The translations under genes and the position numbers were made by a program. Shown here in pieces: positions 2,298 through 16,303 of a DNA stretch of 32,502 bases (its first letter is position 1; every line of letters starts with the position of its first letter). This DNA comes from a virus (Duplodnaviria > Heunggongvirae > Uroviricota > Caudoviricetes): the IMG/VR virus record IMGVR_UViG_2778261222_000005, one strand, 5' to 3'. The notes under the pieces are model-generated. The model was given only the letters and a program-made list of their open reading frames with translations, was not told where the DNA came from and made no database searches.

Positions 2298-3191
2298 ATG
2301 AGTTTAATTACGCAATTAAATGACGTAATGGCCCGTCGCGGCTATACGCAAACCCACGTCGCCCGTGCTATTGGTCGTAGCAGCGCCGTTATCAACCAGT
2401 ATTTACAGGGTAAATATCAGGGCGATATGGCTGATATTGAAGAACGCATTTCTGCCTTTGTGACCCGTGAGCGGGAAAAGGAAAACAGCCGCCGTATTAA
2501 AGCGAAATTTGTTGCCACCGGTATGGCTGCCAAAGGACTGGAGGTGTTGGCCTATGCTCACCTGGAATGTGAAATCTGCGTACTGTATGGCGCGGCAGGT
2601 CTTGGCAAAACAATGATTCTGCGTGAATACGCCGCCAGAAACCGGGATGCGGTCCTGATTGAAGCCGACCCGGGCTATACAGCCAGAACACTGCTTGAGG
2701 AGCTGTGCCGCCAGCTGGGGGTAAAAGTTCGCGGCAATATCCACGAACTGATTGATGCATGTGTGCGAGAACTGCGTGATTCCGGTCGCCTGCTGATGGT
2801 GGACGAGGCTGAACTGCTCCCCTATCGCGCACTGGAGGTTCTGCGCCGTCTGCATGACAAAGCGGGTATCGGGATTGTCCTGGCGGGTATGCCACGCCTT
2901 CTGATTAACCTCAAGGGACGTCGCGGTGAGTTCGCCCAGTTATACAGCCGTGTGGCGCTGGCGCTTAACCTGGGTGATACGCTGGCGCAGGAAGATTTTA
3001 ACCAGATAGCCACCGGGCTGATGCCGGAAGCAGCAGAGCCGGAAATCAGCGAGGCGCTTTATACACGTTCGCTGGGTAATGCCCGCCGCCTGTTCAAACT
3101 GGCGCGTGGTGTGTACCGGATTTGTGATATCAGCGATGCGCCGGTCAGTGTGCAGGCCATTGATAAATTCGCAGAAATGTTAATTCACTGA
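2298..3191 (+). CDS. Mu B-like AAA+ ATPase (transposition target-DNA activator)
   Basis: 297 aa; N-terminal HTH-like segment, Walker A GAAGLGKT, Walker B-like LLMVDEAE; located immediately after the transposase; AAAAGG RBS 9 nt upstream. Confidence 0.85.
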   Translation: MSLITQLNDVMARRGYTQTHVARAIGRSSAVINQYLQGKYQGDMADIEERISAFVTREREKENSRRIKAKFVATGMAAKGLEVLAYAHLECEICVLYGAAGLGKTMILREYAARNRDAVLIEADPGYTARTLLEELCRQLGVKVRGNIHELIDACVRELRDSGRLLMVDEAELLPYRALEVLRRLHDKAGIGIVLAGMPRLLINLKGRRGEFAQLYSRVALALNLGDTLAQEDFNQIATGLMPEAAEPEISEALYTRSLGNARRLFKLARGVYRICDISDAPVSVQAIDKFAEMLIH

Positions 3192-3205
3192 TGGAGAATA
3201 AGACG

Positions 3206-3430
3206 ATGGACAAGCAGACCATTAACGCCGTCCGTTCCCGTGCCCGTGTGGCCATTCACACCACCGGCGGTCGTGTAACGGGACAGCATCACCGTTTACC
3301 TGTGGTTTATGCCTGCCCGCCCGTGGGTGGTCCTGTATGGCCGGTAACGGAAATCGTCCAGACATTCAGCGGCCTGCGCCGCGTGGTGAAAACGTCCTGT
3401 ATCGACGGCTGCACCGTCGTATGGCAATAA
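3206..3430 (+). CDS. hypothetical small protein (early accessory region)
   Basis: ORF track gives 3191..3430; ATG at 3206 is preferred because GGAGAA lies 8 nt upstream. No recognisable family. Confidence 0.45.
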   Translation: MDKQTINAVRSRARVAIHTTGGRVTGQHHRLPVVYACPPVGGPVWPVTEIVQTFSGLRRVVKTSCIDGCTVVWQ

Positions 3431-3442
3431 GAGGAAATCAGA

Positions 3443-3658
3443 ATGGCGGTCAAGTTAGAAGTAATTATCTACACCGATGAAAACGGCACGCTTCGTGTCA
3501 GGAGTATGGGGGCTATTGATAAAAAAGGATTTACGGATGAAGAGGTCGGTGTAAGACAACGGTTATGGGAGGTAATGAATCAAACTCTTAATAAAGAATT
3601 TAACGGCGTTGATTTATTTTCTGTTGGCGTGGAACCCTGCGCGCATAACACACATTAA
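3443..3658 (+). CDS. hypothetical small protein
   Basis: 71-aa ORF with AGAGGAAA RBS just upstream; same strand and spacing as neighbours. Confidence 0.55.
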   Translation: MAVKLEVIIYTDENGTLRVRSMGAIDKKGFTDEEVGVRQRLWEVMNQTLNKEFNGVDLFSVGVEPCAHNTH

Positions 3659-3687
3659 TCTGTAAATATCACTGAGGTAATTTAATT

Positions 3688-4332
3688 ATGACGACTGAAA
3701 ATAAAGTTAAGCAATACACGAAAACTCAAGCGCCTGAAGGTTACTGGGTGGATGCCCGTGGCGTAATGACACCTGAAAGCCTTATCAAAGATATTGACCG
3801 CGACCGCGAGCAGCTGGTCGGTGAGCTTGTGGAGATGGTGATTGCTGCCTCCGCCTCACTGCGGGAACTGAAACTGCGTGCGTTTGGTGATATCCAGGCA
3901 TTTATTGACTTGTCGGCGGAGAAATACGGCGCTGTGAAAGGCGGCAAAAAAGGGAATATCACGCTTTACAGCTTTGACGGGCGTTACAAGATTCAGCGCG
4001 CCATGCAGGACCGTATCGCGTTTGATGAACGCATTCAGACCGCGAAGTCGCTGATTGATGATTGCCTGGCTGACTGGACGGAAGGTGCACGTCCTGAAAT
4101 CAAAGCCATCATCAGCGAGGCATTCAGCACGGACAAGGAAGGCAACATTAACACCGGGCGCGTTCTGGCCTTGCGTCGCCTTGAAATTGAGGACGAACGC
4201 TGGAATAACGCCATGACGCTGATTGGTGAAGCCGTCCAGGTGATTGGCAGCAAGAGCTATATTCGTGTGTATGAGCGCGTCGGCGATTCTGACGAATATC
4301 GCGCAATCCCGCTTGATATTGCAGGGGTTTAA
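3688..4332 (+). CDS. hypothetical protein, possibly DUF3164-like (typical Mu-like early gene)
   Basis: 214-aa ORF with GAGGT RBS. Family label rests on recalled size and position downstream of B in Mu-like prophages, not on a search. Confidence 0.65.
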   Translation: MTTENKVKQYTKTQAPEGYWVDARGVMTPESLIKDIDRDREQLVGELVEMVIAASASLRELKLRAFGDIQAFIDLSAEKYGAVKGGKKGNITLYSFDGRYKIQRAMQDRIAFDERIQTAKSLIDDCLADWTEGARPEIKAIISEAFSTDKEGNINTGRVLALRRLEIEDERWNNAMTLIGEAVQVIGSKSYIRVYERVGDSDEYRAIPLDIAGV

Positions 4333-4333
4333 C

Positions 4334-4567
4334 ATGCATCAGGATATCAAAGAGTACAGAGCCGGGAACCGTTGCGCGGCGTATTCACTGGGAGCGTCAA
4401 GAGCTGAACAGCGCGGTGATTATGCCGAGGCTGAAAAGCTGTGGCGTAAGGCAGCACAAAGCCCGTGTAGCACCCTGCGCCGCATCTGGGCTGAACATCG
4501 TGCGGAGTTCTGCGCTAACGCTCACCTGAAGGGATGGAGGCCACGCCATGAATGCGAAAAACTTTAA
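4334..4567 (+). CDS. small protein, possibly ANR-family-like regulator
   Basis: ATG at 4334, 2 nt after the upstream stop; the track's longer 4244 start would overlap the previous gene by ~90 nt. Small helical protein (...AEQRGDYAEAEKLWRKAAQS...) of the kind annotated ANR family in Mu-like prophages (recollection). Confidence 0.45.
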   Translation: MHQDIKEYRAGNRCAAYSLGASRAEQRGDYAEAEKLWRKAAQSPCSTLRRIWAEHRAEFCANAHLKGWRPRHECEKL

Positions 4568-4739
4568 TAAGTTATATCCGCCTGGTACTCGTTTCATGCA
4601 CATTGCACATCAGGCAGTGCGTGGTGGGCGGGTGGTAAAAACTGTTGCACCGGCCAGAGATTTTAAATGTGGTTGTGTGGTTGAAATTAATGTCGAGCCT
4701 TATTTCGTAAAAGTCGAAACACTGAAAGCACCGCATTAA
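4548..4739 (+). CDS. hypothetical small protein
   Basis: 63-aa ORF; GGAGG 7-11 nt upstream of the ATG; overlaps the previous ORF end. Confidence 0.5.
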   Translation: MNAKNFNKLYPPGTRFMHIAHQAVRGGRVVKTVAPARDFKCGCVVEINVEPYFVKVETLKAPH

Positions 4740-4770
4740 TTTAATTTGTTTTTAATTGTTATTTAAAACA

Positions 4771-4800
4771 GGCGTAAACCCGCCGGGGCTGGCTTACGCC
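4771..4800 (-). terminator. hairpin terminator serving the convergent minus-strand gene
   Basis: GGCGTAA...TTACGCC inverted repeat with a GC-rich interior. A T-run follows the hairpin only when read on the minus strand (plus-strand A/T-rich 4741-4770); on the plus strand it is followed by TGAATCTGAGG with no U-run. Confidence 0.45.
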
Positions 4801-4879
4801 TGAATCTGAGGAAGTTTATTTATGAATATCGCTAAGCAGAAAAAATTCGCCCGCGAAATTAATCTGACAATCGTTTGTT

Positions 4880-5098
4880 TTAATCGTCTTGCGACCAGTT
4901 CTCAATCGACAGCAGATGTTCATCCAGCGCCGCAGCCAGAACGAACTCCCCACGTTCCTGAAGGCCGTGCTGGAAGTTGCGTAATTCAGAATCCAGGGCG
5001 CTGAGGTTCAGACAGCCATTTTCTGAAAGCTGTTTAACCAGAAAACTCCACGCAGCTTTGTTAGCAGTAATTGCTGCCGCAATTTCATCATCAATCAT
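4880..5098 (-). CDS. hypothetical small acidic protein encoded antisense to the early operon
   Basis: 72-aa ORF; AGGAG 7 nt upstream of its ATG on the minus strand; ends ~80 nt before the hairpin at 4771-4800. Competes with a 60-aa plus-strand ORF (4822..5004) whose C-terminus is Pro/Arg-rich and looks like out-of-frame sequence. Confidence 0.5.
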   Translation of the reverse strand: MIDDEIAAAITANKAAWSFLVKQLSENGCLNLSALDSELRNFQHGLQERGEFVLAAALDEHLLSIENWSQDD

Positions 5099-5186
5099 TT
5101 TTTAACTCCTGATTGGGTATGTTGGGGCAGCGATTATGACAAGCGTTTTGTGGTTATAAGTTGATCAAAAACAATGAGTTACAACC

Positions 5187-5897
5187 ATGAAAGATAAATA
5201 CATTGCCAAAATCAAAAAACTGTTACGCCTTGCCAGAGGAACATCAAGCCCGGAAGAAGCCGCTAACGCTATTGCAAAAGCCCAGGCTTATATGCGCCAG
5301 CATGGTATCAGCGAAAACGACGCGGAATTGTTCGACATTCAGGAAGCTGCCAGCGCGGGTGCGCCGAGTGACGCCAGTACGCCGCCGCTTTATATGCACA
5401 TCCTGTGTGACCTGGTCTGTAAAGCCTTCGGCGTCGAGTGTTACATCTCCGGTGAGTACCGGGCTTCTGGTTCACTCAAACGTCACGTGCGTTTTTATGG
5501 CTCTGACAGCCGCCCGGAAATCGCGGCTTACGCGTTTGATGTGCTTTCCCGTCAGATGATGGCTGAACGCAAGAAATATCAGGATAAACACTGCAAACGT
5601 TGCGGCCCGTCCACGCGGGTGGCCCGTGGCGACCAGTTCTGCGAAGGCTGGGTCTTTGGTGCCCGTGATGTCATTGCGGTGTATGACGTCTCCCCGGAAG
5701 AAAAAAGCCGCCTTGAGCTTTACAGAAAGAACCTGCACAGCACTAAGGGGCTGCGCGACGGGGATATGCGCACAGCTAAAGCGTGCCGGGGTGCAGAGTT
5801 TGCCGCTACAGCCGGTTTTATCGCCGGGAAAAACGCCAGACTGCATCAGGGGGTTAATGGTCAGAGCAACAGACCGCTGGCACTGGGGAGGGTGTAA
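5187..5897 (+). CDS. DUF2786-like protein
   Basis: 236 aa; N-terminus IAKIKKLLRLARGTSSPEEAANAIAKAQAYMRQHGI matches the recalled DUF2786 helical signature; C-terminal half has a Cys cluster (HCKRCG...QFCEGW). Confidence 0.7.
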   Translation: MKDKYIAKIKKLLRLARGTSSPEEAANAIAKAQAYMRQHGISENDAELFDIQEAASAGAPSDASTPPLYMHILCDLVCKAFGVECYISGEYRASGSLKRHVRFYGSDSRPEIAAYAFDVLSRQMMAERKKYQDKHCKRCGPSTRVARGDQFCEGWVFGARDVIAVYDVSPEEKSRLELYRKNLHSTKGLRDGDMRTAKACRGAEFAATAGFIAGKNARLHQGVNGQSNRPLALGRV

Positions 5898-5899
5898 CG

Positions 5900-6127
5900 A
5901 TGGCTTTTAAACTTCTCAGTGTTACCGAAGCAATATACCAGCCGCCCGGAGAACGCCACGAATACAGGATGAATGACGGTAGCGCGGTGGTTGAGTTCCC
6001 CGGATATCCGGGGGCTTCCCGGTGGCGGTTCTATGACAGTGTGGGACGTCGGATTATTAAAAGAACCGTGCACAACAATATGAAGGCTGCCGTAGAACGT
6101 CATAAGAGAAGGTTTAACTGCAAATGA
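5900..6127 (+). CDS. hypothetical small protein
   Basis: 75-aa ORF starting 3 nt after the previous stop; no family recognised. Confidence 0.45.
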   Translation: MAFKLLSVTEAIYQPPGERHEYRMNDGSAVVEFPGYPGASRWRFYDSVGRRIIKRTVHNNMKAAVERHKRRFNCK

Positions 6128-6354
6128 AAATTGAATTTTATGACCATGGGGTCACCGCAACTATCACTATTTCTTGTTGGTTCTGGGAGTTCCACCGTTA
6201 CTTCAGAGTTGTAGATGCTGCGCTGTTTGTTGCACCGGGAGCGTTACATCACAGTGGAATCGGTATTGTTATGAACACTGTCATCAGCGGTAAAACGGTC
6301 CCGATGTTGCGGGCGTTTAAAGTGGCAAAACAGGAGGCTGGCAATGGTCATTGA
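6124..6354 (+). CDS. hypothetical small protein
   Basis: 76-aa ORF overlapping the upstream stop (ATGA); hydrophobic segments. Confidence 0.4.
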   Translation: MKIEFYDHGVTATITISCWFWEFHRYFRVVDAALFVAPGALHHSGIGIVMNTVISGKTVPMLRAFKVAKQEAGNGH

Positions 6355-6634
6355 TAAAACGATAACGATAGATGTAGCCATGAATGCAGGCATCGCTCTT
6401 CTCGGTTGGTGTTACATCATGCTCCGCGCCGGGATGTGGCTGTCCCTTGTATTTCTGAAAACATGGAATAAGCACCGTAAACAGACGCAGCAGCAGAAGG
6501 CGATGAATGCGTTCTTTGAGGCCTTCGATATCGACAGCATAGAGCCGGGAGAACCAACCCGCGTCATCCCCGTAGGTGATGTCGTGATTTTGGTATACCG
6601 GAGTGAAAAAAATAAACAGGAGGCGGCGCAGTGA
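6344..6634 (+). CDS. hypothetical membrane protein
   Basis: 96-aa ORF; predicted TM segment (GIALLGWCYIMLRAGMWLSLVFL) followed by a soluble tail. Confidence 0.5.
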   Translation: MVIDKTITIDVAMNAGIALLGWCYIMLRAGMWLSLVFLKTWNKHRKQTQQQKAMNAFFEAFDIDSIEPGEPTRVIPVGDVVILVYRSEKNKQEAAQ

Positions 6635-6795
6635 ACCAGCAAACCAGAATAAGCGATAAGAGCCTGACCAGACTGATTGCCGATGCGGACAAGGTGCTGG
6701 AGCGGAACACACCCGTTGCCGATGAGGAATGGTGGCAGGATTTCTGGGCTGCAATGCTGGAACTTCAGGAACGTCGTCGGGAGGAGTTGAAGTGA
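6631..6795 (+). CDS. hypothetical small protein (54 aa, not in the supplied ORF track)
   Basis: GTG start overlaps the upstream stop (GTGA); AGGAGG 7 nt upstream; reads MNQQTRISDKSLTRLIADADKVLERNTPVADEEWWQDFWAAMLELQERRREELK to a TGA that overlaps the next GTG start. Confidence 0.45.
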   Translation: MNQQTRISDKSLTRLIADADKVLERNTPVADEEWWQDFWAAMLELQERRREELK

Positions 6796-7061
6796 GTGAA
6801 TTAAAGTGTCGAATTAATGGCAATCAGATAGAACCGTGTGCGGTACTGGCAAAAGCACTCGAATATGGAAATCCAGCCTTTAAGAGTAAAGGCATATTTA
6901 TCCCGGAACGCGTGAATATAAACACCGGCGAGCCAGGCTTAGACATTGCTCAAATTCACTCCGGCCAATATGTCGGTCGTGGTGTTGCCATGTGTTTTTG
7001 CCCGTTCTGTGGTGAAAGTCTGAAAACATGGAAAAAGGAGGCAACCAGTGAGCGAGATTAA
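6792..7061 (+). CDS. hypothetical Cys-containing small protein
   Basis: GTG at 6792 with GGAGGAG 5 nt upstream, preferred over the track's 6729 start, which would overlap the previous gene. C-terminal CFCPFC motif plus two N-terminal Cys suggest a metal-binding ribbon (inference). Confidence 0.5.
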   Translation: MSELKCRINGNQIEPCAVLAKALEYGNPAFKSKGIFIPERVNINTGEPGLDIAQIHSGQYVGRGVAMCFCPFCGESLKTWKKEATSERD

Positions 7062-8617: not shown

Positions 8618-9090
8618 TGAAAAAATGGTTGTTTTGTTTAGTAGGGGTTATTTTCTCTTGTTCTGTGCTGGCACAGACAGAGGAACAGGCGCAAAAGGAA
8701 CTGAAACGTTATCAGGATATGAAGCCATTGGCTGAACAGATGCTTCGGGAAAGTGGAAAACTTTATTACGCTATGCCAGAAGCTGCATCGCAATATCAGC
8801 AGGGAAATATTGAAGAGTGGAAGAATATCAAAAAAGGACTAAAACAACTGGATGAACAGGCCAGTAAACTGGGGGACGACCCGCTTGATCCTGTGTATGG
8901 TTCCTGCATAAAAATGAAAAACCAGCTACAGGATTACTGGTCTAACGTTATCAGGGATGACAGGCAGTTTCTGGAGCGTTCAAGAAATCAGTTTAAAGAA
9001 TATCGTATGGATTGTTTTGATTCGTTTGTTTTTGGTAAAGAGCAAATAGAATCAAGAAAAGGCCTGGTTATTCTAGACCTGACTAAATAA
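8614..9090 (+). CDS. secreted or lipoprotein-like protein of unknown function (AT-rich moron)
   Basis: 158 aa; N-terminal signal peptide MMKKWLFCLVGVIFSCSVLA with a possible lipobox-like FSC; gene is visibly more AT-rich than its neighbours (by eye, not computed); followed by a strong intrinsic terminator. Confidence 0.7.
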   Translation: MMKKWLFCLVGVIFSCSVLAQTEEQAQKELKRYQDMKPLAEQMLRESGKLYYAMPEAASQYQQGNIEEWKNIKKGLKQLDEQASKLGDDPLDPVYGSCIKMKNQLQDYWSNVIRDDRQFLERSRNQFKEYRMDCFDSFVFGKEQIESRKGLVILDLTK

Positions 9091-9100
9091 GACTTAGTTT

Positions 9101-9127
9101 AGCCCCTGCCATGCAGGGGCTTTTTTT
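9101..9127 (+). terminator. rho-independent terminator
   Basis: Perfect 9-bp stem AGCCCCTGC / GCAGGGGCT with 3-nt loop, followed by TTTTTTT. Confidence 0.8.
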
Positions 9128-9129
9128 GT

Positions 9130-9165
9130 GGTCTGTACAGGCGATCATGTATGGCTATAATAACA
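9130..9165 (+). promoter_or_regulatory. candidate promoter for the Mor/C-family activator gene
   Basis: Perfect TATAAT hexamer at 9156-9161, between the upstream terminator and the activator start. The -35 is poor (TGTACA-like with 15-bp spacer), so the promoter may be activator-dependent. Confidence 0.35.
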
Positions 9166-9190
9166 GTAAGTTACTACCGGAGACGCCATC

Positions 9191-9658
9191 ATGCAGACCT
9201 TCAGTGAAACAGATCTTCGCGATGCGCAGGCACTGCTGCCCGATTCCGTGCAGCAACTGATTAGCGTGATTGGCTTCCCCGCCCTGACCCGGTTGATTCG
9301 TTCTTTTGGTGGCGTGACGTTAAGCGGTAAAACCGGCGTACACGCCGAACGCACTGGCGGTGTCCATGCCATGTTACATGACGTGCTGACCGAAGACGAA
9401 ATCAACAAACTGATCCGTTTTCTTGGCGGCGCACCGTTTTACATTCCCCGTTGCGATCATGCGTTACGTGCCCTGCGTAACACCCGTTTTATGGCTGATT
9501 TACAGCAGCATGTAAAAGGCGGATGCTCACACCGGCAGGCGCTGGCACTGCTCTGTCCCCGTTACGGCATTTCAGACCGGTACGCATGGCAGCTGATACA
9601 CCGACGACAAAAACAGACTTCGCTGAAAAGCCCCACCCAGGTGGGGCTTTTTGATTAA
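9191..9658 (+). CDS. Mor/C-family transcriptional activator
   Basis: 155 aa; central LGGAPFYIPRC and C-terminal HTH-like region (ALALLCPRYGISDRYAWQLIHRR) resemble the recalled Mu Mor/C signature; GGAG 9 nt upstream. Only one Mor/C-like gene is visible in the window. Confidence 0.8.
   Translation: MQTFSETDLRDAQALLPDSVQQLISVIGFPALTRLIRSFGGVTLSGKTGVHAERTGGVHAMLHDVLTEDEINKLIRFLGGAPFYIPRCDHALRALRNTRFMADLQQHVKGGCSHRQALALLCPRYGISDRYAWQLIHRRQKQTSLKSPTQVGLFD
9627..9652 (+). terminator. intrinsic terminator embedded in the 3' end of the activator gene
   Basis: Stem GCCCCAC / GTGGGGC with short loop followed by TTTTT; overlaps the last codons of the activator gene (stop at 9656-9658). Confidence 0.6.
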
Positions 9659-9685
9659 TGGGCCTCAGAAAAAAGGAGACACGAA

Positions 9686-9973
9686 ATGATGCGTTCTGAC
9701 ACCGATATCGACTATGCAGTACTCGGTGAATATACCGCATTTTCAGACAAGGCCCGGGATGCAGCCCGTCGCCGACATGCTGAAATGTGCAGTTTATCCA
9801 GTTACCTGGCGAAACAGGCCCAAAGCCCGGAATCAGTAACGAATCATGATGAAGTGCTGTCAGCCGTAAACAGAATGATTGACGCAGAACGGGAAATGCG
9901 TAATGCCGTGGAAAGAGCTAACCTGCTGGCGCGGGCATGTTATAAGCCACCATTAAAACTCGCTTCTCTTTAA
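9686..9973 (+). CDS. hypothetical protein
   Basis: 95-aa ORF with AAGGAGA RBS; helical, no family recognised. Confidence 0.55.
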   Translation: MMRSDTDIDYAVLGEYTAFSDKARDAARRRHAEMCSLSSYLAKQAQSPESVTNHDEVLSAVNRMIDAEREMRNAVERANLLARACYKPPLKLASL

Positions 9974-9996
9974 CCCATCCAGATAATCAACCTGCC

Positions 9997-10015
9997 GGGG
10001 GTGCTGAACACCCCC
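9997..10015 (+). promoter_or_regulatory. conserved late-promoter motif, copy 1 (upstream of lysis cassette)
   Basis: GGGGGTGCTGAACACCCCC; core GTGCTGAACACCC (10001-10013) is identical to copies at 18160-18172 and 30076-30088. Flanks form a 7-bp inverted repeat around CTGAA. Downstream CAGTACCC is shared with copy 2. Confidence 0.5.
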
Positions 10016-10161
10016 AGCAGTACCCACCACAGCATACCGTTTACCCTGTCCACTCAGACCACAAGACACCTTAAGGGATAGCGCCCGGCAAAAGTCATTC
10101 TGTGCCTTTGACCGGGTGTTATTTACGGGCCGTCAGTGGCTCAGATTTACAGGAGAAACTC

Positions 10162-10554
10162 ATGTCTGAACCCTTATCAGGCGGCGGAGCTGTGGCAGTC
10201 ACCATCGGTGGTGCCAGTGTGTTTGGCCTTCTCACCAATACCGATTTCGGGGTTGTGGTGGGCGCGTTTGCCGGAGCGCTTTTTGTTGTCACGCAGCAGA
10301 AAGAAATCCCGGTATGGCGAATGGCTATTCATCTGCTCGTCGCGTTTGTGGTTGGCGTTCTGGGGGCTGGCGTGGCTGCGTCACTGATGCAGTGGCTGAC
10401 CCACTACAACGACAAGCCGCTCGATGCATTGTGTGCGGTCGGTGTCTCGGCGTTATCCATCAAGATACTGACCTTTCTTTATCAACAGGAAATTTCATCG
10501 CTGTTCGGCCTGTTTTCCAGACTGCGCGGCGGAGGGGGGGGAAATGGAAAGTAG
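10162..10554 (+). CDS. holin-like membrane protein
   Basis: ATG at 10162 with AGGAG RBS (track start 10102 is an upstream GTG); ~131 aa with several Gly/Ala-rich TM segments; sits just upstream of the endolysin. Confidence 0.55.
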   Translation: MSEPLSGGGAVAVTIGGASVFGLLTNTDFGVVVGAFAGALFVVTQQKEIPVWRMAIHLLVAFVVGVLGAGVAASLMQWLTHYNDKPLDALCAVGVSALSIKILTFLYQQEISSLFGLFSRLRGGGGGNGK

Positions 10555-10840
10555 CCTTGCCGGTATCGTGAACGTCTGGCTGTGTCTCGCCATTGTGCTG
10601 GGGTTGTTTGTGTATCGCCGCCACGGTGCGGCGCATAAACCGATGATTACCTGGCTGGCGTACTGGCTGATGCTCGGCTACGTCATCATCCCGTTCCGCT
10701 GGCTGTCCGGTACATACACGCACTCCAGTTGGCTGGTTGTGGCGCTGAATCTGGTTTTCTGTGCGCTTATCGTGTGGGCGCACGGGAATTTGTCAAAAAT
10801 CCTTTCGTTACTGAGGCATCCACATGAAATCAAAAGATAA
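10544..10840 (+). CDS. second holin/antiholin-like membrane protein
   Basis: 98 aa with 2-3 predicted TM helices; GGAGGGGGGG RBS; overlaps the previous gene end and the endolysin start. Confidence 0.5.
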   Translation: MESSLAGIVNVWLCLAIVLGLFVYRRHGAAHKPMITWLAYWLMLGYVIIPFRWLSGTYTHSSWLVVALNLVFCALIVWAHGNLSKILSLLRHPHEIKR

Positions 10841-11369
10841 AATTTTTGATGAAGTCCTGGGCAAAGAAGGCGGTTATGTCAATCACCCGGATGATAAGGG
10901 CGGTCCGACCAAATGGGGCATTACGGAAAAAGTCGCCCGCGCCCACGGATACCGTGGCGATATGCGCGATTTAACCCGCGAACAGGCGCTGGACATCCTT
11001 GAAGCCGATTACTGGTATGGCCCGCGATTTGACCAGATCGCCGCATTATCCCCTGATATTGCCGCAGAGCTGTGTGATACCGGTGTGAATATGGGGCCAA
11101 CCGTGGCGTCCAGAATGCTTCAGCGCTGGCTGAATGTGTTCAATCTGCGCGGCAGGCTGTACCCGGATATGGACGCAGACGGACGCATCGGGCCTCGTAC
11201 CATCAGTGCATTGCGCGCCTTCCTGAATAATCGCGGTCAGGACGGTGAACGGGTGATGCTGACGGCCCTGAACTGTACGCAGGGGGACCGCTATCTGGAA
11301 CTGGCGGAGAAACGCGAGGCTAACGAATCGTTTGTTTATGGCTGGCTGAAGGAGCGCGTGGCGATATGA
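10824..11369 (+). CDS. endolysin, GH108-type N-terminal domain with peptidoglycan-binding C-terminal region
   Basis: 181 aa; N-terminal EGGYVNHPDDKGGPTKWGIT matches the recalled GH108 signature (EGGYxxxxxDxGGxTxxGIT); position after holins. Confidence 0.85.
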   Translation: MKSKDKIFDEVLGKEGGYVNHPDDKGGPTKWGITEKVARAHGYRGDMRDLTREQALDILEADYWYGPRFDQIAALSPDIAAELCDTGVNMGPTVASRMLQRWLNVFNLRGRLYPDMDADGRIGPRTISALRAFLNNRGQDGERVMLTALNCTQGDRYLELAEKREANESFVYGWLKERVAI

Positions 11370-11548
11370 CGCGTCAGCACTGGACCCACAGAACGCCACG
11401 TAAAGCCGCGCGCTGTGTTCTGGCCCTGTTTCTGGTGATGTTGCTTCCGGTGGGATGCACAGACATTAACAGAACGGGACAGCTGTTAGACGCGGCGGCG
11501 CAGGTCTGCCGGATTATTGACGGCATCCGGCAGTGTTCACAGAACTGA
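11366..11548 (+). CDS. small lipoprotein, possible o-spanin-like lysis protein
   Basis: 60 aa; start overlaps the endolysin stop (ATGA); signal peptide with lipobox-like LPVGC. No obvious partner i-spanin seen. Confidence 0.4.
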   Translation: MTRQHWTHRTPRKAARCVLALFLVMLLPVGCTDINRTGQLLDAAAQVCRIIDGIRQCSQN

Positions 11549-11568
11549 TTTTTCGAAGGTCTGACACA

Positions 11569-11775
11569 GTGAGCATTATCAGATTTACAGAATACAGAGG
11601 TTCAGGAGGTGCTGGCGCTGTCATGGTGCTCGCTGAACGCATCACCCATTTTTACCGTCAGTACGGTACACATGATGGCACGGTCATTGAACTGGATACC
11701 GGGAAAAACGTGTTTGTTCTTGAAAATCCCGACGAAGTTCAGCGCAGGATTGAACAGGCTCAGAAGGACACTTAA
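11569..11775 (+). CDS. hypothetical protein (start uncertain)
   Basis: Frame open from GTG 11533; GTG 11569 and ATG 11623 (AGGAGGT 12 nt upstream) are alternative starts. No TM or lipobox, so unlikely to be an i-spanin. Confidence 0.35.
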   Translation: MSIIRFTEYRGSGGAGAVMVLAERITHFYRQYGTHDGTVIELDTGKNVFVLENPDEVQRRIEQAQKDT

Positions 11776-12275
11776 TGGCGTGGTCACAGGATATCAGGGA
11801 CAAAGTCCGTAACGGGTACATCTTTGACCAGCTTCCGCTGGATATCGTCGCCATGAAATACGCCGTGCCGCACGATACCGCGCGGCGCTGGAAAACGCAG
11901 GCGATGAAGAACGGCGACGACTGGGACAAGCTGCGGGCCGCTCACGCGCTCGCCGGTGACGGGCTGGAAAGTGTCGCCCGCACCGTACTTATCAGTCTGG
12001 TGGTGAAGTGTCAGACGACGCTTGAGCGGCTGAACCAGAACCCGGACATCCCGCCGCAGGAGTCCGTCGAACTGCTGGCGAGTCTGTCTGACAGTCTCAG
12101 TAAGGCGGTGGCCAGCAGCAAAAAAATCCTGCCGGAAACCGATCGGCTCGCCACGGCACTGGAAGTGGTGCAGCGGCTCGGCGCGTTCATCAAGGAGCGT
12201 CACCCGGCACAGTATGCCCCGTTTCTTGAGGTGCTCGAAGGCTTCGCTAAAGAGCTTGAGGATAATTTCAGTTAA
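11775..12275 (+). CDS. putative terminase small subunit (Mu gp27-like, DUF1804-type)
   Basis: 166 aa with an N-terminal HTH-like segment; located immediately upstream of the terminase large subunit region. Family name recalled, not searched. Confidence 0.55.
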   Translation: MAWSQDIRDKVRNGYIFDQLPLDIVAMKYAVPHDTARRWKTQAMKNGDDWDKLRAAHALAGDGLESVARTVLISLVVKCQTTLERLNQNPDIPPQESVELLASLSDSLSKAVASSKKILPETDRLATALEVVQRLGAFIKERHPAQYAPFLEVLEGFAKELEDNFS

Positions 12276-12281
12276 CCACAG

Positions 12282-12301
12282 CGGCCCGGTTTTCCGGGCC
12301 G
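12282..12301 (+). terminator. GC-rich hairpin, possible attenuator or weak terminator before the methyltransferase gene
   Basis: CGGCCCGG-TTTT-CCGGGCCG perfect 8-bp stem; followed by TCTGATATTCGGGATTTG, only a weak U-tract. Confidence 0.4.
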
Positions 12302-12321
12302 TCTGATATTCGGGATTTGTA

Positions 12322-13062
12322 ATGCAAAAACAGATTATTGGTAACGCAACGTTGTATTGCGGTGATGTTCTTGATGTGCTGCCGGCGTTATCTGAACGTT
12401 TTGATGCCGTCATTACCGACCCGCCTTACAGCAGTGGTGGCACACACAAATCAGACCGCAGCATGGCCCCTTCGGACAAGTATGTCGGTCACACCCAGTA
12501 TGCCGAGTTCAGCGGGGATAACCGCGACCAGCGCAGCTGGGCATACTGGAGCACCCTGTGGATGTCCGGGGCTGCCCGCCTTGTGCGCCCCGGTGGTTAT
12601 GTCATGGTGTTCAGTGACTGGCGACAGCTTCCCACCATGACCGACGTTTTTCAGGCCGGTGGTGTGCTGTGGCGTGGTCTTGTTGTCTGGGATAAAACGC
12701 AGGCTTCCCGTGCGCCACACACCGGCTATTTCCGGCATCAGGCCGAGTATGTGGTCTGGGGCAGCAACGGAAAACTCGACAAATGTCCGCACGGTGGCCC
12801 GTTCCCGGGTGTGATTACGCAGCGTGTTGTCCCGTCCGAAAAACTGCACATGACCGCAAAGCCGGTTCAGCTGATGGCCGAGCTGGTTAAACCGCTGGCA
12901 CCGGATGCGCACGTTCTCGATCCGTTTATGGGAAGCGGCACCACCGCCATCCCTGTACTTGCCCGTGGCGGACGGTTTACCGGCATTGAAATGACTAACC
13001 AGTATTTTGATATCGCCTGCGCACGTATCGAAAAAGCGCAGGCAGAAGCAGCGCAGGTGTGA
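12322..13062 (+). CDS. orphan DNA methyltransferase (N6-adenine or N4-cytosine, PF01555-like)
   Basis: 246 aa; catalytic DPPY motif near the N-terminus (VITDPPYSS) and AdoMet-binding DPFMGSGTT near the C-terminus, with a ...TAKPVQLMAELVK segment. No adjacent restriction endonuclease gene. Confidence 0.85.
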   Translation: MQKQIIGNATLYCGDVLDVLPALSERFDAVITDPPYSSGGTHKSDRSMAPSDKYVGHTQYAEFSGDNRDQRSWAYWSTLWMSGAARLVRPGGYVMVFSDWRQLPTMTDVFQAGGVLWRGLVVWDKTQASRAPHTGYFRHQAEYVVWGSNGKLDKCPHGGPFPGVITQRVVPSEKLHMTAKPVQLMAELVKPLAPDAHVLDPFMGSGTTAIPVLARGGRFTGIEMTNQYFDIACARIEKAQAEAAQV

Positions 13063-13063
13063 C

Positions 13064-14704
13064 GTGGCAAAACGTAAACTTTCCATTAAAGAGTTTCAGA
13101 GAAGCCTGCAGGAGTACATCGCCAACCTCCGCCAGACCATCGAGGCTGAATGTCTGGGGTTCGATGTTAACCCGCAGGCCACACAGGCCCGCCGGGCGGC
13201 AGTCTGCGACCCGGTGACGGGCTACGATTATTTTGTCGAAAACTATTTCCCGCATTACGTCCGCAACCCGGCAAAAAGTGAGCTGCATAAATACCTGTTC
13301 AGCCGTCTGCCACAGGTTGTGGCAAGCCCGGACCCGGAGAACGACGCCATCGCCGCCCCCCGTGGTGAAGCAAAATCCACGCTGGTGACTCAGCTGTTTA
13401 CCCTGTGGAACATTATCCGGGCCATTAAACATTATCCGGTCATCATTATGGACAGTATCGACCAGGCTTATCCGATGCTGGAAGCCATCAAGGCTGAACT
13501 GGAATTTAACCCCCGTTTAAAAAACGATTTCCCGGAAGTGTGCGGGCAGGGTCGCGTCTGGCGTATGGGGACCATCGTCACGGCCAACAATATCAAGGTG
13601 ACCGTTGCCGGTAGTGGTAAAAAGCTGCGTGGTCTGCGCCACGGTCCGTACCGTCCTGACCTGGTTATCCTCGACGACATCGAGAACGACGAGATGGTGC
13701 GTAACCCGGAGCAGCGCGACAAGCTGCATGACTGGCTCACCAAAACCGTGATGCCGCTGGGCGAGGCTGGCGGTAAAACCGATATTATTTATATCGGGAC
13801 CATCCTGCATTACGACTCCGTACTGTCACGCACGCTGAATAACCCGATGTGGAAAACGGCCCGCTTTAAGGCTGTCATTCAGTGGCCTGCCAATATGAAG
13901 CTGTGGGACGAGTGGGAAGAACTCATCCGCAACAAACAGCCGGAAGCAGCAGAGGCACTTTACCGACAGAACGAAGCCGACATGCTCGCCGGGTCGGTGG
14001 TGTCATGGGCGGCGCGTCCCCTGCTGGCACTGATGAAAATCCGTGTCCGTGACGGTCATGACACCTTTGATTCTGAATACCAGAACGACCCGGTCAGCGG
14101 TGAAGATGCGCTGTTTGCGGACTGCATTAAGTTCTGGGTTAACCGTCTTGATGAATGGGTGTTTTATGGTGCTGTTGACCCCAGTCTCGGGAAGAAAAAC
14201 AAAAACCGCGACCCGTCGGCCATTCTCGTGGGGGGCTTTAACCGCTTTACCGGCATTCTGGATGTGGTTGAAGCCGATATCCGCCGACGTCTGCCAAACA
14301 AACTTATCGAAGACGTGATTAAGTATCAGCGGGAATACCACTGTCTGTGCTGGTCGTTTGAGTCCGTCCAGTTTCAGGAGTTTCTGCGTACCGTGCTGGT
14401 TGAGCGTTCGGCGGCGCTGGGCGTGCCGGTTCCGGCGCTGCCGGTCATCCCGCTGGAGGATAAAGCGCTGCGTATTGAGTCCCTTCAGCCGCATATGGCC
14501 AACGGCCTGATCCGCATCAGTCCGGCACATCAGACGCTGATTGACCAGCTGCGCCACTACCCCAAAGCCGACCACGATGATGGCCCGGACTGTCTGCACA
14601 TGCTGTGGACGCTGGCGGTATCGCGCAGCGCAAAATTTCAGATACACACCCCACGCAGCAGCGGGCGTGACCGTGGCGGGCGTTTTGGTTCAGGAGGATG
14701 GTAA
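13064..14704 (+). CDS. terminase large subunit (Mu gp28-like)
   Basis: GTG at 13064, 1 nt after the methyltransferase stop, preferred over the in-frame ATG 13007, which overlaps that gene by 56 nt. ~547 aa with ATPase-like N-terminal half and acidic nuclease-like motifs (LVILDDIEND); located upstream of the portal. Confidence 0.8.
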   Translation: MAKRKLSIKEFQRSLQEYIANLRQTIEAECLGFDVNPQATQARRAAVCDPVTGYDYFVENYFPHYVRNPAKSELHKYLFSRLPQVVASPDPENDAIAAPRGEAKSTLVTQLFTLWNIIRAIKHYPVIIMDSIDQAYPMLEAIKAELEFNPRLKNDFPEVCGQGRVWRMGTIVTANNIKVTVAGSGKKLRGLRHGPYRPDLVILDDIENDEMVRNPEQRDKLHDWLTKTVMPLGEAGGKTDIIYIGTILHYDSVLSRTLNNPMWKTARFKAVIQWPANMKLWDEWEELIRNKQPEAAEALYRQNEADMLAGSVVSWAARPLLALMKIRVRDGHDTFDSEYQNDPVSGEDALFADCIKFWVNRLDEWVFYGAVDPSLGKKNKNRDPSAILVGGFNRFTGILDVVEADIRRRLPNKLIEDVIKYQREYHCLCWSFESVQFQEFLRTVLVERSAALGVPVPALPVIPLEDKALRIESLQPHMANGLIRISPAHQTLIDQLRHYPKADHDDGPDCLHMLWTLAVSRSAKFQIHTPRSSGRDRGGRFGSGGW

Positions 14705-14707
14705 TTA

Positions 14708-16303
14708 ATGGCACAGCTTGTTGATATTTACGGACGCCCGCTGAAACGTGAGGCACTCAAAACAACGCAGTCGGTCAGAGTGGCGGAACGACTGCGCATC
14801 TATCCCGATCACCCGTCCCGTGGTCTGAACATCAGAAAACTGCCGCGTATTCTGGAAGCAGCCGAACGCGGTTATCTTCCGGCGCAGGCGATGCTGTTTG
14901 CGGATATGGAAGAACGTGATGGCCATCTGTTCGCCGAGATGGAAAAGCGCAAAAAAGCGTTGCTGACGCTGGACTGGTCGGTGGAGCCGCCCCGCAATGC
15001 CTCGAAGGCAGAAAAGGAGCTGGCCGCCGCCGTGGATGAATGGCTGCACGGCATCCCGGACATGGAGGACATCATCCTCAACGGGATGAGCAGTGTCGGT
15101 TACGGCTTCAGCTGTCAGGAAATCAGCTGGGCGTTCGTGGATAAAACATGGTTACCGGATGCGGTGACGCTGCGCCCGCATAACTGGTTCATAACTCTGC
15201 CGGAACACAATGACGAACTCCGGCTGGATGACGGCAACCGTGGGGAAGACGGTAAGGACGGTTCCGCATTGTGGCCGTTCGGCTGGCTGGTTCACCGTTA
15301 CAACGCCCGGTCGGGGTTCCTGGGTTCATCCGGCCTGTTCCGCGTACTGGTCTGGCCGTATCTGTTTAAAAACTTTGCGCTGCGTGATATGGCGGAATTT
15401 CTGGAGATTTACGGTCTTCCAGCGCGCATTGCGTACTATGCACAGGGCACCAGTGACGCGGACCGGGACAACATTCTTGAGGCGCTGGTCAATCTGGGGC
15501 ATGAAGCGGTGGCAGCCCTGCCGCAGGGTAACGAAATCGAGTTCAAGGAAGCTGCATCCGGCGGACCGGAGGCATTCATGTCGATGGTGGAATGGGCGGA
15601 GCGTACCACCTCAAAAGTGATTCTGGGCAGTACGCTGACCAGCCAGGCCGACGGTAAAACCTCCACCAACGCACTGGGTAATGTCCATAACGAGGTCCGG
15701 CACGACATTCTGACCGCTGATGCACGCCAGCTGTCCGGCATGTTCAGCAGTCTGATACAGATGATGGCCAGTCTCAACGGCTGGCAGGATATCCCGTCAC
15801 GCCGTCTTCCGCGCCTGGTGTTTGATGTGCAGCAGGAAGCTGACATTAAGGGTGTGGCGGAAGCCGTCAGCGTGTTGCTCAACAATGTGGGGATGAAGGA
15901 TATCCCGGCGTCGTGGGTGCGCAAAAAAACCGGCATCCCCACCCCGAAAGACGGCGAAGAGGTGCTGATGCCGGTGGCACAGTCTCTCCCTGTGCAGGCC
16001 GGACTCAGCCAGCTGCGTGAGCGGCTGAATGTTGCCGCGCTCAGTCAGCAGGACAACGGGGAGGACGACCCGGCACAGAACGCCATCGACCGGGCAGAAC
16101 TTCCGGCAGAGGTCATCGCGCAGGGGATGAACGAACTGGTGGCCCCACTGGTGCAGGCCATACAGGAAGGCCGGGATGCAGACGAGGCCATGAACGTACT
16201 GGCGGAAGCCTGGCCGGAGCTGCCGGATGAAACACTGCGGCAGTTGCTGACGCAGGCATTCTTTGTGGCGGATATCTGGGGGCGACTGAATGCCGACAGC
16301 TGA
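14708..16303 (+). CDS. portal protein (Mu gp29-like, DUF935)
   Basis: 531-aa ORF immediately after the large terminase; size and position match the Mu-like portal. Confidence 0.8.
   Translation: MAQLVDIYGRPLKREALKTTQSVRVAERLRIYPDHPSRGLNIRKLPRILEAAERGYLPAQAMLFADMEERDGHLFAEMEKRKKALLTLDWSVEPPRNASKAEKELAAAVDEWLHGIPDMEDIILNGMSSVGYGFSCQEISWAFVDKTWLPDAVTLRPHNWFITLPEHNDELRLDDGNRGEDGKDGSALWPFGWLVHRYNARSGFLGSSGLFRVLVWPYLFKNFALRDMAEFLEIYGLPARIAYYAQGTSDADRDNILEALVNLGHEAVAALPQGNEIEFKEAASGGPEAFMSMVEWAERTTSKVILGSTLTSQADGKTSTNALGNVHNEVRHDILTADARQLSGMFSSLIQMMASLNGWQDIPSRRLPRLVFDVQQEADIKGVAEAVSVLLNNVGMKDIPASWVRKKTGIPTPKDGEEVLMPVAQSLPVQAGLSQLRERLNVAALSQQDNGEDDPAQNAIDRAELPAEVIAQGMNELVAPLVQAIQEGRDADEAMNVLAEAWPELPDETLRQLLTQAFFVADIWGRLNADS

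Follow-up and report, generated by a model that had tools for sequence, protein, structure and literature searches.

A solitary beta-class DNA methyltransferase gene in the packaging module of an Escherichia coli Mu-like prophage: a conserved but dispensable accessory gene with a probable anti-restriction role

Introduction

Why does a Mu-like prophage carry a DNA methyltransferase (MTase) gene directly in front of its large terminase gene, and what would the enzyme do for the phage? We addressed this question for the IMG/VR virus record IMGVR_UViG_2778261222_000005, the 32,502 nt of which are referred to as the window. The window is a Mu-like prophage of E. coli and shares 98.7% identity with the eut-locus prophage of E2348/69. 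A near-identity search of positions 11700-13500 in the phage collection gave no match, and only prophage copies of the element are known. The initial annotation had proposed an orphan methyltransferase, inserted between the genes for the small and the large terminase, and probably protecting phage DNA by self-methylation.

An intact beta-class methyltransferase

The gene runs from 12322 to 13062 on the + strand (ATG to TGA, 246 aa) and codes for an orphan beta-class DNA amino-methyltransferase. Its product matched Pfam PF01555 N6_N4_Mtase with 82.3 bits (gathering cut-off 26.7, E 6.5e-23), PHROG 67 'DNA methyltransferase' (E 1.1e-55) and, over the full length, the PADLOC model MTase_II PDLC03321 (E 1.6e-64). 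The protein is 100% identical to cluster P0001 ('site-specific DNA-methyltransferase [Escherichia coli]', 440 members), and RefSeq already labels the gene 'DNA-methyltransferase'. The two motifs that had led to the PF01555-like assignment are both intact: as read from the sequence, motif IV DPPY of the catalytic loop lies at 12418-12429 (+ strand, aa 33-36) and the AdoMet-binding motif I DPFMGSGTT at 12919-12945 (+ strand, aa 200-208). This is the permuted order of the beta class, with motif IV N-terminal and the FxGxG motif I C-terminal. When 58 homologues were aligned, T32-D33-P34-P35-Y36-S37-S38-G39 proved invariant, as did D200, F202, G204 and S205 of motif I, and DPFMGSGTT aligned with the FxGxG region of M1.HpyAVI, CcrM and the M.EcoGII-like enzyme. 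The homology comparison that had been suggested as a check for an inactive remnant thus returned catalytic and AdoMet motifs that are intact and (nearly) invariant.

Values of dN/dS against orthologues ranged from 0.03 to 0.11, close to the range of terL (0.035-0.056), and indicate that the MTase is under purifying selection and that the gene is functional. A foreign composition of the gene could be ruled out: its GC content is 57%, compared with 56-60% in the flanks.

The AF2 model of the protein reached a pLDDT of 84 and a pTM of 0.84. Its best Foldseek matches were CcrM (6PBD), M.BceJIV (8URK/9C3U) and M1.HpyAVI (5HEK/5HFJ), at E ~1e-15 and TM 0.65-0.76; all three share fold and motif order with the MTase. 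These solved beta-class enzymes are ~22% identical to it, and the C-terminal DNA-binding domain of CcrM is missing from the MTase. We considered reading the target from the solved relatives (GANTC, GTWWAC, GAGG-type), which at ~22% identity is not inferable. With M1.HpyAVI the MTase has a flexible loop after DPPY and a very short target-recognition region in common. The loop after DPPY (12433-12522, + strand, aa 38-67, pLDDT below 50) is likely to contact DNA, and its residues K53, Y54, F63 and G65 are invariant in the 58 homologues. In M1.HpyAVI the corresponding loop (residues 33-58) is disordered when DNA is absent and affects specificity (PMC5173035). A second conserved loop, RAPHTGYF (12709-12732, + strand, aa 130-137, with the conserved run extending as RHQ to aa 140), also has a pLDDT below 50. 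In the alignment to 5HFJ it lies opposite the HRRY hairpin loop of M1.HpyAVI, for which a minor-groove role has been proposed (PMC5173035). Within RAPHTGYFRHQ the positions R130, P132, H133, G135, Y136, R138, H139 and Q140 are invariant across the same 58 homologues.

Probable chemistry of the reaction

N4-cytosine enzymes typically start motif IV with Ser and N6-adenine enzymes with Asp or Asn, which is a tendency and not a proof. The MTase reads D-P-P-Y and not S-P-P-Y/F, and D33, the first residue of the motif, is invariant in the 58 homologues. Among the PDB sequence matches the N6-adenine enzymes (5e-15 to 2e-11) beat the N4-cytosine enzyme (1e-7) by 4 to 8 orders of magnitude, and many homologues are labelled 'adenine-specific' by JGI. 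From these sequence features the MTase is most probably N6-adenine-specific. That it methylates N4 of cytosine instead appears improbable, although PF01555 spans both chemistries (PMC3091744) and 8S9M, an N4C enzyme of a rotifer, lies almost as near in fold (Foldseek E 6e-15); a protective role in self-methylation would be the same in either case.

Genomic setting

Upstream of the MTase, where Mu has gp27, lies a DUF1804 gene (11775-12275, + strand, 166 aa), the product of which is a putative small terminase or DNA-binding protein (Pfam PF08822, E 2.8e-52; PHROG 756 'DNA binding protein'). Downstream follow the large terminase gene terL (13064-14704, + strand, 546 aa, GTG start as in RefSeq), which was identified by PHROG 38 (E 1.9e-143), TIGR01630 and the RefSeq label terL, and a Mu-type portal gene (14708-16303, + strand; Pfam Portal_Mu, E 4e-95). 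The MTase therefore lies within the packaging/head module, as first described, with TerL and portal directly 3'. Of the description "between small and large terminase" the TerL side stands; the small terminase label is positional only, since the DUF1804 protein has no detectable similarity to Mu gp27 (BLASTP E 0.57; hhalign probability 1.6%) or to a solved TerS. Mu gp27 and B3 ORF30 belong to PF11985 and not to PF08822. A profile search of the DUF1804 protein in the PDB gave no sequence match, and a fold search with its AF2 model (pLDDT 81, an N-terminal HTH followed by long helices) gave nothing significant (best E 0.96; putative TerS 2AO9 at E 4.3). In Mu itself gp27 is followed by gp28 after a 7-nt gap and com/mom lie at the right end, so that the remark that Mu has no such gene at this place is correct.

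The MTase is co-directional with its neighbors, with a spacer of 46 nt to the DUF1804 gene, and a single nucleotide separates its stop codon from the terL start, a spacing that is conserved across genera. At the junction (13054-13066, + strand) the sequence reads CAG GTG TGA, C, GTG, i.e. Q, V and stop followed by the start of terL, and the AGGTG in the last MTase codons is the Shine-Dalgarno sequence of terL. This junction, CAGGTGTGACGTGG, is kept in copies that lack the MTase and is conserved as CAGGTGTAACGTGG in the loci L007, L008, L110 and L113. Consensus scans detected neither a sigma-70-like promoter between 9200 and 15000 nor a terminator-like site on the + strand between 10300 and 15000. 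Because the stop codon is 1 nt from terL and no promoter-like site lies upstream, the MTase gene probably belongs to the late operon of lysis, packaging and head genes.

A GC-rich hairpin had been noted in front of the gene. It exists in the spacer between DUF1804 and MTase (12282-12301, + strand, CGGCCCGG-TTTT-CCGGGCCG), with an 8-bp all-GC stem (12282-12289/12294-12301) and a TTTT loop, and the RNA fold of 12265-12345 scored z = -4.1 against shuffles. The association with the MTase does not hold: the hairpin is kept directly 5' of terL in the MTase-less loci L003, L004, L091 and L111, and is therefore an element of the backbone. With different loops it recurs in L007, L010, L011, L109, L110 and L112. 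Having no T run, it was not scored as a terminator in the consensus scan, and we rejected it both as an MTase-specific element and as a terminator. The conserved hairpin could attenuate read-through.

The annotation of the E2348/69 prophage copy lists no restriction endonuclease and, besides TerL, no other nuclease, which bears out the claim that the MTase has no restriction partner. PADLOC matched nothing among seven unassigned early or small ORFs, its only matches being the MTase models. Homologues of com/mom were absent from the window and from the right end of three prophage copies. Likewise the window holds no Com-like ORF (tblastn with 7 Com proteins, all E above 0.4), and no small ORF with a CxxC...CxxC pattern was found near the MTase. 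Control by Com had been suspected from the gpCom gene that precedes the homologue in Escherichia phage Chuche and was dismissed because the window is without com or mom. Also rejected as a Com candidate was a 69-aa ORF between DUF1804 and MTase in Serratia (L019/L020), which lacks cysteines and is one of the small genes common in that lineage.

Presence and absence in related prophages

We compared the locus between prophages of the same backbone. The MTase is present in 36 complete E. coli genomes and absent in 19 (19/55), and IMG/VR contigs gave 13 with and 7 without it. Window and E2348/69 were aligned against the strains Z1324SEC0014 and UMNF18, and the segment specific to MTase-positive copies spans 12311-13053 (+ strand, 743 nt); at this place the copies without the MTase show 7 nt, TGTATAC. 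The resulting length difference of 736 nt was found in all 19 complete genomes with identical junctions. DUF1804 and TerL of the MTase-less copies are 97-99% identical to those of the positive ones, and exactly the last 10 nt, CAGGTGTGAC, are kept before terL. Where present, the ORF is full-length and uninterrupted, both in the 36 complete genomes and across genera. The MTase is thus a conserved but dispensable accessory gene, and since a third of the related prophages lack it, any benefit from it is conditional.

All outgroup prophages (Yersinia, Serratia, Buttiauxella, Intestinirhabdus) carry the MTase in the same slot, and the MTase-less E. coli copies are dispersed inside the MTase-positive clade. 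Together with the retention of what appear to be its last codons, this distribution suggests that the gene is ancestral in the lineage and was secondarily lost. To speak of an inserted gene is therefore probably wrong in direction for this lineage.

Between the alleles of the MTase within the E. coli lineage, of which there are two, a mosaic patch was found at 12511-12648 (+ strand, aa 64-109) with 16 shared amino-acid changes. These changes and 38 of the nucleotide differences between the alleles lie in 12475-12675; the flanks are 97-99% identical.

Relatives and other occupants of the slot

In other enterobacterial Mu-like prophages the slot between DUF1804 and terL holds the same MTase, and elsewhere other small genes. 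Mu-like phages have already been described as carrying accessory genes in their terS-terL slot, with tab/anti-tab in Pseudomonas Mu-like phages (PMC10884400). Among Mu-like phages, cargo recurs at the DUF1804-terL junction. Like the MTase, tab/anti-tab is dispensable, while proteins and function are unrelated: tab inhibits tail assembly and is encoded on the opposite strand, where it has a promoter of its own, and the antidote anti-tab, on the late-operon strand and tightly joined to its neighbor, is made exactly as the late genes fire (PMC10884400).

The MTase family comprises more than 7,000 relatives, is phage-associated and has members of 46-55% identity in Firmicutes and Planctomycetes. 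At ~70 family loci the neighbors were overwhelmingly phage genes (Com, DUF1804, portal, terminases, MuF, primase, integrase), and a Mu Com-like zinc-ribbon gene preceded 6 of 72 members. Relatives lie between a Mu-type portal and MuF in L080 and L087 and directly before TerL in L058. Identity to the MTase is 55% for Chuche CDS0014, 52% for BPP-1 Bpm and 43% for the Burkholderia phage homologues. Chuche, Bpm and KS5 gp20 resemble the MTase in that they are ~250 aa long, solitary and placed amid late or structural genes. In P2-like phages, however, the relatives follow a Com-like zinc-ribbon translational regulator, as in Burkholderia phage KS5 with Com gp21 and methylase gp20 (PMC3091744), whereas the MTase abuts terL in a window without com. 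Searching the literature, we found neither a published target sequence for KS5 gp20, Chuche CDS0014 or BPP-1 Bpm, nor a published methylome or specificity for WP_001171800 or close relatives.

Mu Mom is similar to the MTase in the role proposed for the latter, the late modification of phage adenines protecting the progeny of a transposable phage. It differs in kind, Mom having an acyltransferase fold and making N6-carbamoylmethyl (acetamido) adenine, whereas the MTase is an AdoMet enzyme in the packaging module without Com. Adenine MTases are known to take the place of mom in Mu-like phages that lack it; among these MTases, Hin1523, Nma1821 and Hia5 methylate adenine (m6A) non-specifically and have Dam, DpnM and T4Dam as closest homologues (PMC3299994). 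These three are orphan enzymes that replace mom in Mu-like prophages and are silent in lysogens, but they are alpha-class and sit in the mom position behind com, whereas the MTase is beta-class and sits in the packaging module. B3 ORF48 is likewise alpha-class and lies after Com between tail genes. Kinship of the MTase with Hia5/Hin1523/Nma1821 was rejected, these being Dam-like as described in PMC3299994, and B3 ORF48 is unrelated (E 1.9).

M.EcoGII is, like the MTase, beta-class with DPPY before FxGxG, prophage-borne, orphan and expected to be expressed only on induction (PMC5778455). It is 349 aa long and non-specific (PMC5778455), compared with 246 aa for the MTase. Matches to a 352-aa M.EcoGII-like protein of phage 1720a-02 (E 3e-8 over 56 aa, 3e-4 over 32 aa) were confined to the catalytic and AdoMet motifs. 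Membership in the M.EcoGII-like group was therefore rejected, and the non-specificity of M.EcoGII is not transferable to the MTase.

Proposed function and alternatives

The best explanation for the locus is a solitary accessory MTase that is made late and methylates progeny phage DNA before packaging, thereby evading restriction; we put its probability at roughly two in three. Given the co-directional arrangement, the lack of an own promoter-like site in a simple consensus scan and the terL ribosome-binding site in its last codons, the MTase would be produced along with the terminase and only once the late operon fires. It would then methylate the replicated phage copies ahead of headful packaging, and progeny DNA would reach the next host pre-modified and resist those restriction enzymes with sites that overlap the methylated motif. 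The MTase may thus be the functional counterpart of Mu's Mom in a lineage without com/mom. MTases of E. coli prophages are often not expressed in the lysogenic state (PMC5778455; PMC6602927), and if this holds here, existing methylomes would not show its activity.

Could the enzyme instead be expressed in the lysogen, where it would methylate the host chromosome and alter expression or protect the host genome? Presence/absence polymorphism among otherwise near-identical phage genomes, as found here, is typical of such morons, the stable hairpin directly upstream could insulate the gene from upstream transcription, and tab of phage JBD26 is expressed from the prophage in the same slot (PMC10884400). 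Yet tab has its own promoter and lies on the opposite strand, whereas the MTase lies on the late-operon strand, 46 nt behind one neighbor and 1 nt before the next, and a moron-type promoter and terminator of its own were not found for it (consensus scan only, with no sigma-70-like promoter in 9200-15000). The hairpin is also present where the MTase is absent, and lysogens do not express comparable MTases of E. coli prophages (PMC5778455; PMC6602927). We therefore regard expression in the lysogen as unlikely.

Even less can be said for a gene kept only as its 3' end supplies the ribosome-binding site of terL. Retention of CAGGTGTGAC in MTase-less copies implies that these 10 nt are needed for terL, but the same clean deletions mean that the gene body is not needed for terL expression, and an inactive remnant is hardly compatible with an ORF and catalytic and AdoMet motifs that are intact in 36 complete genomes and across genera, or with the low dN/dS. 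The translational abutment on terL, its conservation across genera and the relatives near portal, MuF or TerL would also fit a regulator of packaging, with the MTase marking the pac/terminase region so that the terminase engages or cuts modified DNA only. Phage P1, with its Dam-dependent pac cleavage, is a precedent (also mentioned in PMC5005818). Such a role is very unlikely, however, as DUF1804 and TerL occur without the MTase in 19 of 55 complete E. coli genomes and 7 of 20 IMG/VR contigs, and most family members lie far from terminases, by Com, primase, integrase or tail genes. In addition, the terS-terL slot of other Mu-like lineages contains unrelated cargo (PMC10884400).

With pre-modification of progeny DNA as its role, the MTase would be an anti-restriction accessory gene of a kind that is ordinary in phages, where orphan MTases are commonplace. 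If this reading is right, the prophage is one more temperate phage with a solitary MTase that pre-modifies its own DNA, and the finding opens no new biological question. What it adds is that an E. coli Mu-like lineage without mom has a different, optional modification gene, and that sibling prophages with and without it (E2348/69, UMNF18) offer a natural comparison of the gene's worth to the phage. The family is large, phage-associated and uncharacterised, so a single methylome would annotate many genomes.

Invariant positions in the post-DPPY and RAPHTGYFRHQ loops extend from enterobacteria to betaproteobacteria. Based on these uniform loops and on a minimal target-recognition region like that of the promiscuous M1.HpyAVI, we tentatively consider, without giving it much weight, that the whole family shares one very short or relaxed adenine target and represents a third independent, beta-class substitute for Mom. 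It would then provide transposable and P2-like phages with broad protection from restriction, and its 246 aa would make it a compact candidate tool enzyme beside Hia5 and M.EcoGII.

Identity of the methyltransferase gene

The gene at 12322–13062 (+ strand) is a real and correctly identified, but ordinary, solitary phage methyltransferase (MTase), at a position where Mu-like phages are known to carry accessory genes. Its product of 246 aa matches Pfam PF01555 well above threshold, PHROG 67 and, across the full length, the PADLOC Type II MTase model; the RefSeq annotation already reads 'DNA-methyltransferase'. The motif order, DPPY (aa 33–36) followed by DPFMGSGTT (aa 200–208), is that of the beta class. 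All of this bears out the initial annotation, which had placed a PF01555-like MTase here. Based on the Asp of motif IV and better sequence matches to m6A enzymes, we favour N6-adenine as the predicted chemistry, with N4-cytosine as a minor possibility. We agree with the earlier statement that the target cannot be read from the sequence: no derivation is possible, and literature searches turned up neither a methylome nor biochemical work on any of its close relatives.

The AF2 model has a confident core and resembles CcrM, M.BceJIV and M1.HpyAVI. Two low-confidence segments contain invariant positions: the loop following DPPY (aa 38–67) and the RAPHTGYF loop (aa 130–137), whose conserved run extends as RHQ to aa 140. 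The equivalent loops of M1.HpyAVI are disordered without DNA; roles in binding DNA and in specificity have been ascribed to them, and the very short recognition region of this enzyme has been linked to relaxed specificity (PMC5173035).

Two MTase alleles occur in the E. coli lineage (L090, L099, L103–L105; L-numbers denote related loci or contigs compared with the window locus). They differ in a dense mosaic patch (12511–12648, aa 64–109) with 16 shared amino-acid changes; 38 of the nucleotide differences fall within ~200 nt, and the flanking DUF1804 and terL genes are 97–99% identical. Since dS against the Yersinia orthologue is also far higher for the MTase (2.4) than for the adjacent terL (0.88), the gene has a recombination history of its own.

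Distribution of the MTase family

More than 7,400 relatives were found at E ≤ 1e-10. Scanning a single genome from each species gave 448 confirmed loci (46–81% identity), including Enterobacterales, Burkholderiales, Planctomycetota, Negativicutes and others. The commonest immediate upstream family on the same strand was the Mu Com zinc ribbon (6 of 72 loci), followed by DUF1804 and portal proteins; downstream same-strand neighbors included primases, integrases, MuF and terminases. Nuclease-like neighbors occurred at isolated loci only. The Com-MTase pairing matches the annotations of Escherichia phage Chuche and of Burkholderia phage KS5, in which gp21 is Com and gp20 an N4/N6 methylase (PMC3091744). 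Taken together, neighbors and pairing indicate a widespread, phage-borne and solitary family, often found in mom's regulatory niche. In phage Mu itself the gp27–gp28 gap measures only 7 nt, and com and mom lie at the right end; both were absent from the window and from the right ends of three sequenced prophage copies.

Membership in the family of Hin1523, Nma1821 and Hia5 was ruled out, as these are Dam-like (PMC3299994). Kinship with B3 ORF48, which is unrelated, and with M.EcoGII-type enzymes, which have only motifs in common with the MTase, was likewise ruled out. Plasmid leading-region methylases of the PRK13699 type are ~27% identical.

Presence and absence of the gene in related prophages

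The window, a Mu-like E. coli prophage, codes for MuA and MuB homologues, a Mor-family activator, holins and an endolysin; DUF1804, MTase, TerL, Mu-type portal, MuF-like protein and tail genes come after them. Prophages of 35 complete E. coli genomes match region 11700–13500 at 98.7–99.9% identity, among them the one interrupting eutC in EPEC E2348/69; the phage collection contained no near match. Altogether 55 complete E. coli genomes matched the region. The whole DUF1804-MTase-terL arrangement was found in 35, MTase and terL preceded by an IS66 insertion in one (RM9088), and no MTase in 19, in which DUF1804 and terL are present at 97–98% identity. In the alignment, the MTase-less form has 7 nt (TGTATAC) in place of the 743-nt segment 12311–13053. 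IMG/VR contigs of the same lineage contained the gene in 13 cases and lacked it in 7. In RM9088 (L005, 1–3050) the IS66 element replaces everything left of the MTase including DUF1804; this prophage is decayed, yet MTase, terL and portal genes are intact.

The gene had been described as inserted between the terminase genes, and this is not what the comparison points to. Prophages of Yersinia, Serratia, Buttiauxella and Intestinirhabdus show DUF1804-MTase-terL with the same tight junction (MTases 77–83% identical). E. coli copies without the MTase fall at scattered places among those that have it in a neighbor-joining tree of terL, in which all outgroups are MTase-positive. Furthermore, the MTase-less E. 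coli junction retains the would-be last two MTase codons and the stop, and an independent MTase-less contig (L111) retains the variant ending CAGGGGTAA of its MTase-positive relative (L112). These sequence comparisons are suggestive, though not conclusive, of an ancestral gene that was lost secondarily; the argument is weakened because the retained bases double as the terL ribosome-binding site.

The DUF1804–terL interval as a cargo site

In 80 IMG/VR loci found with DUF1804, its distance to terL ranged from -4 to 1239 nt. The interval contained a common 67-aa ORF ('MADKLI...', many contigs), a 72-aa ORF (69–72 aa, '...WLAMQ.ICGP'), a lipoprotein-like ORF of 99 aa, an ORF of 188 aa, or the MTase, either by itself or combined with these; the other cargo is seen, for example, at L110 1914–2213, L113 5016–5424, L134 4949–5515 and L114/L146/L150 ~4994–5200. 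Accessory genes at this position are already documented, since tab and anti-tab occupy the corresponding slot of Pseudomonas Mu-like phages (JBD26); anti-tab lies on the late-operon strand, which gives its production the correct timing (PMC10884400). Another Mu-like lineage, a distant one in Serratia with a TerL 36% identical, independently placed a member of the MTase family (59% identical) at this position.

In this second Serratia lineage (L019) the insert consists of a 69-aa ORF and the MTase, bounded by a duplicated junction ATGGCTAAGTT: the left copy (4790–4810) spans the DUF1804 stop and ORF start, the right copy (5740–5760) the MTase stop and terL start. In the relative L126, which lacks the MTase, the junction occurs a single time (~4990–5010). 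The duplication looks like the footprint of a cassette insertion at an overlapping stop/start. In alphaproteobacterial loci with Mu-type head genes (L080 and L087, Azospirillum and Sphingomonas, 3100–6900) a family member is located between portal and MuF-like gene, another intergenic slot of the packaging/head module.

The neighboring DUF1804 gene (11775–12275) had been called the small terminase. Its position just upstream of terL agrees with this, but the label is positional only. The protein shows no similarity to Mu gp27 (E 0.57; profile-profile probability 1.6%), which together with B3 ORF30 belongs to a different Pfam family (PF11985), nor did it match any PDB sequence. AF2 models an N-terminal helix-turn-helix and, after it, four long helices, and this model had no significant structural neighbor; the predicted architecture is compatible with TerS without establishing it. 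TerL (13064–14704) was identified by PHROG 38 and TIGR01630; it hit none of the Pfam terminase models, and its similarity to Mu gp28 is marginal (BLASTP E 0.021). Despite its Mu-type portal, the prophage thus has packaging genes that are not closely related to Mu's.

Transcriptional context and proposed role

The MTase stop (13060–13062) is separated by one base from the terL GTG start at 13064, and the terL ribosome-binding site AGGTG lies inside the last MTase codons. From the lysis genes to the portal gene we found neither a sigma-70-like promoter nor a terminator-like site on the + strand. On the simplest reading of this gene arrangement, the MTase is a late-operon gene whose translation immediately precedes that of terL. 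Region 9000–15000 contains a single sigma-70-like promoter match (9134–9161), directly after a strong, T7-tailed, terminator-like hairpin (9101–9121); the pair lies just upstream of the Mor-family activator gene (9191–9658) and is probably the early/middle transcription boundary.

The GC hairpin reported ahead of the MTase exists (12282–12301, 8 bp). In the alignment this left hairpin and the right CAGGTGTGAC-GTG are common to MTase-positive and MTase-less forms, and relatives keep the hairpin, with loops of varying sequence, both where an MTase follows and where none does. It is thus part of the DUF1804–terL spacer and not of the MTase. The stem GGCCCGG-loop-CCGGGCC is conserved across genera (L003, L007, L010, L011, L109–L112), often followed by a T-rich stretch. 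The hairpin may act on the late transcript between DUF1804 and terL, by attenuation or by stabilisation.

Probably made together with the late proteins, the MTase would methylate the amplified phage copies ahead of headful packaging, and progeny DNA would thereby be protected in advance from restriction in the next host. Control of packaging, as by Dam at P1 pac, is less likely, because MTase-less siblings have near-identical DUF1804 and TerL proteins and the family occurs in many non-terminase contexts. An epigenetic role of an MTase expressed in the lysogen is also less likely given the missing promoter. An inactive remnant is less likely too. Both DPPY and DPFMGSGTT are present, and dN/dS against orthologues is 0.03–0.11, comparable to terL; such purifying selection indicates that the gene is kept and contradicts a remnant. 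Interest remains in a very uniform, uncharacterised enzyme family and in the naturally occurring sibling prophages with and without the MTase, which would make its benefit easy to measure.

Genomic location of prophage copies

In E2348/69 (L001/L006, 2716000–2752200) the prophage interrupts eutC and splits the ethanolamine-utilisation operon; an ISEc13 element nearby also interrupts eutA. A 97.6%-identical MTase is located on a 200 kb Escherichia albertii plasmid (NZ_CP043265.1, 165761–166498), and two of the E. coli matches to 11700–13500 are likewise on plasmids, presumably following transposition of the Mu-like element.
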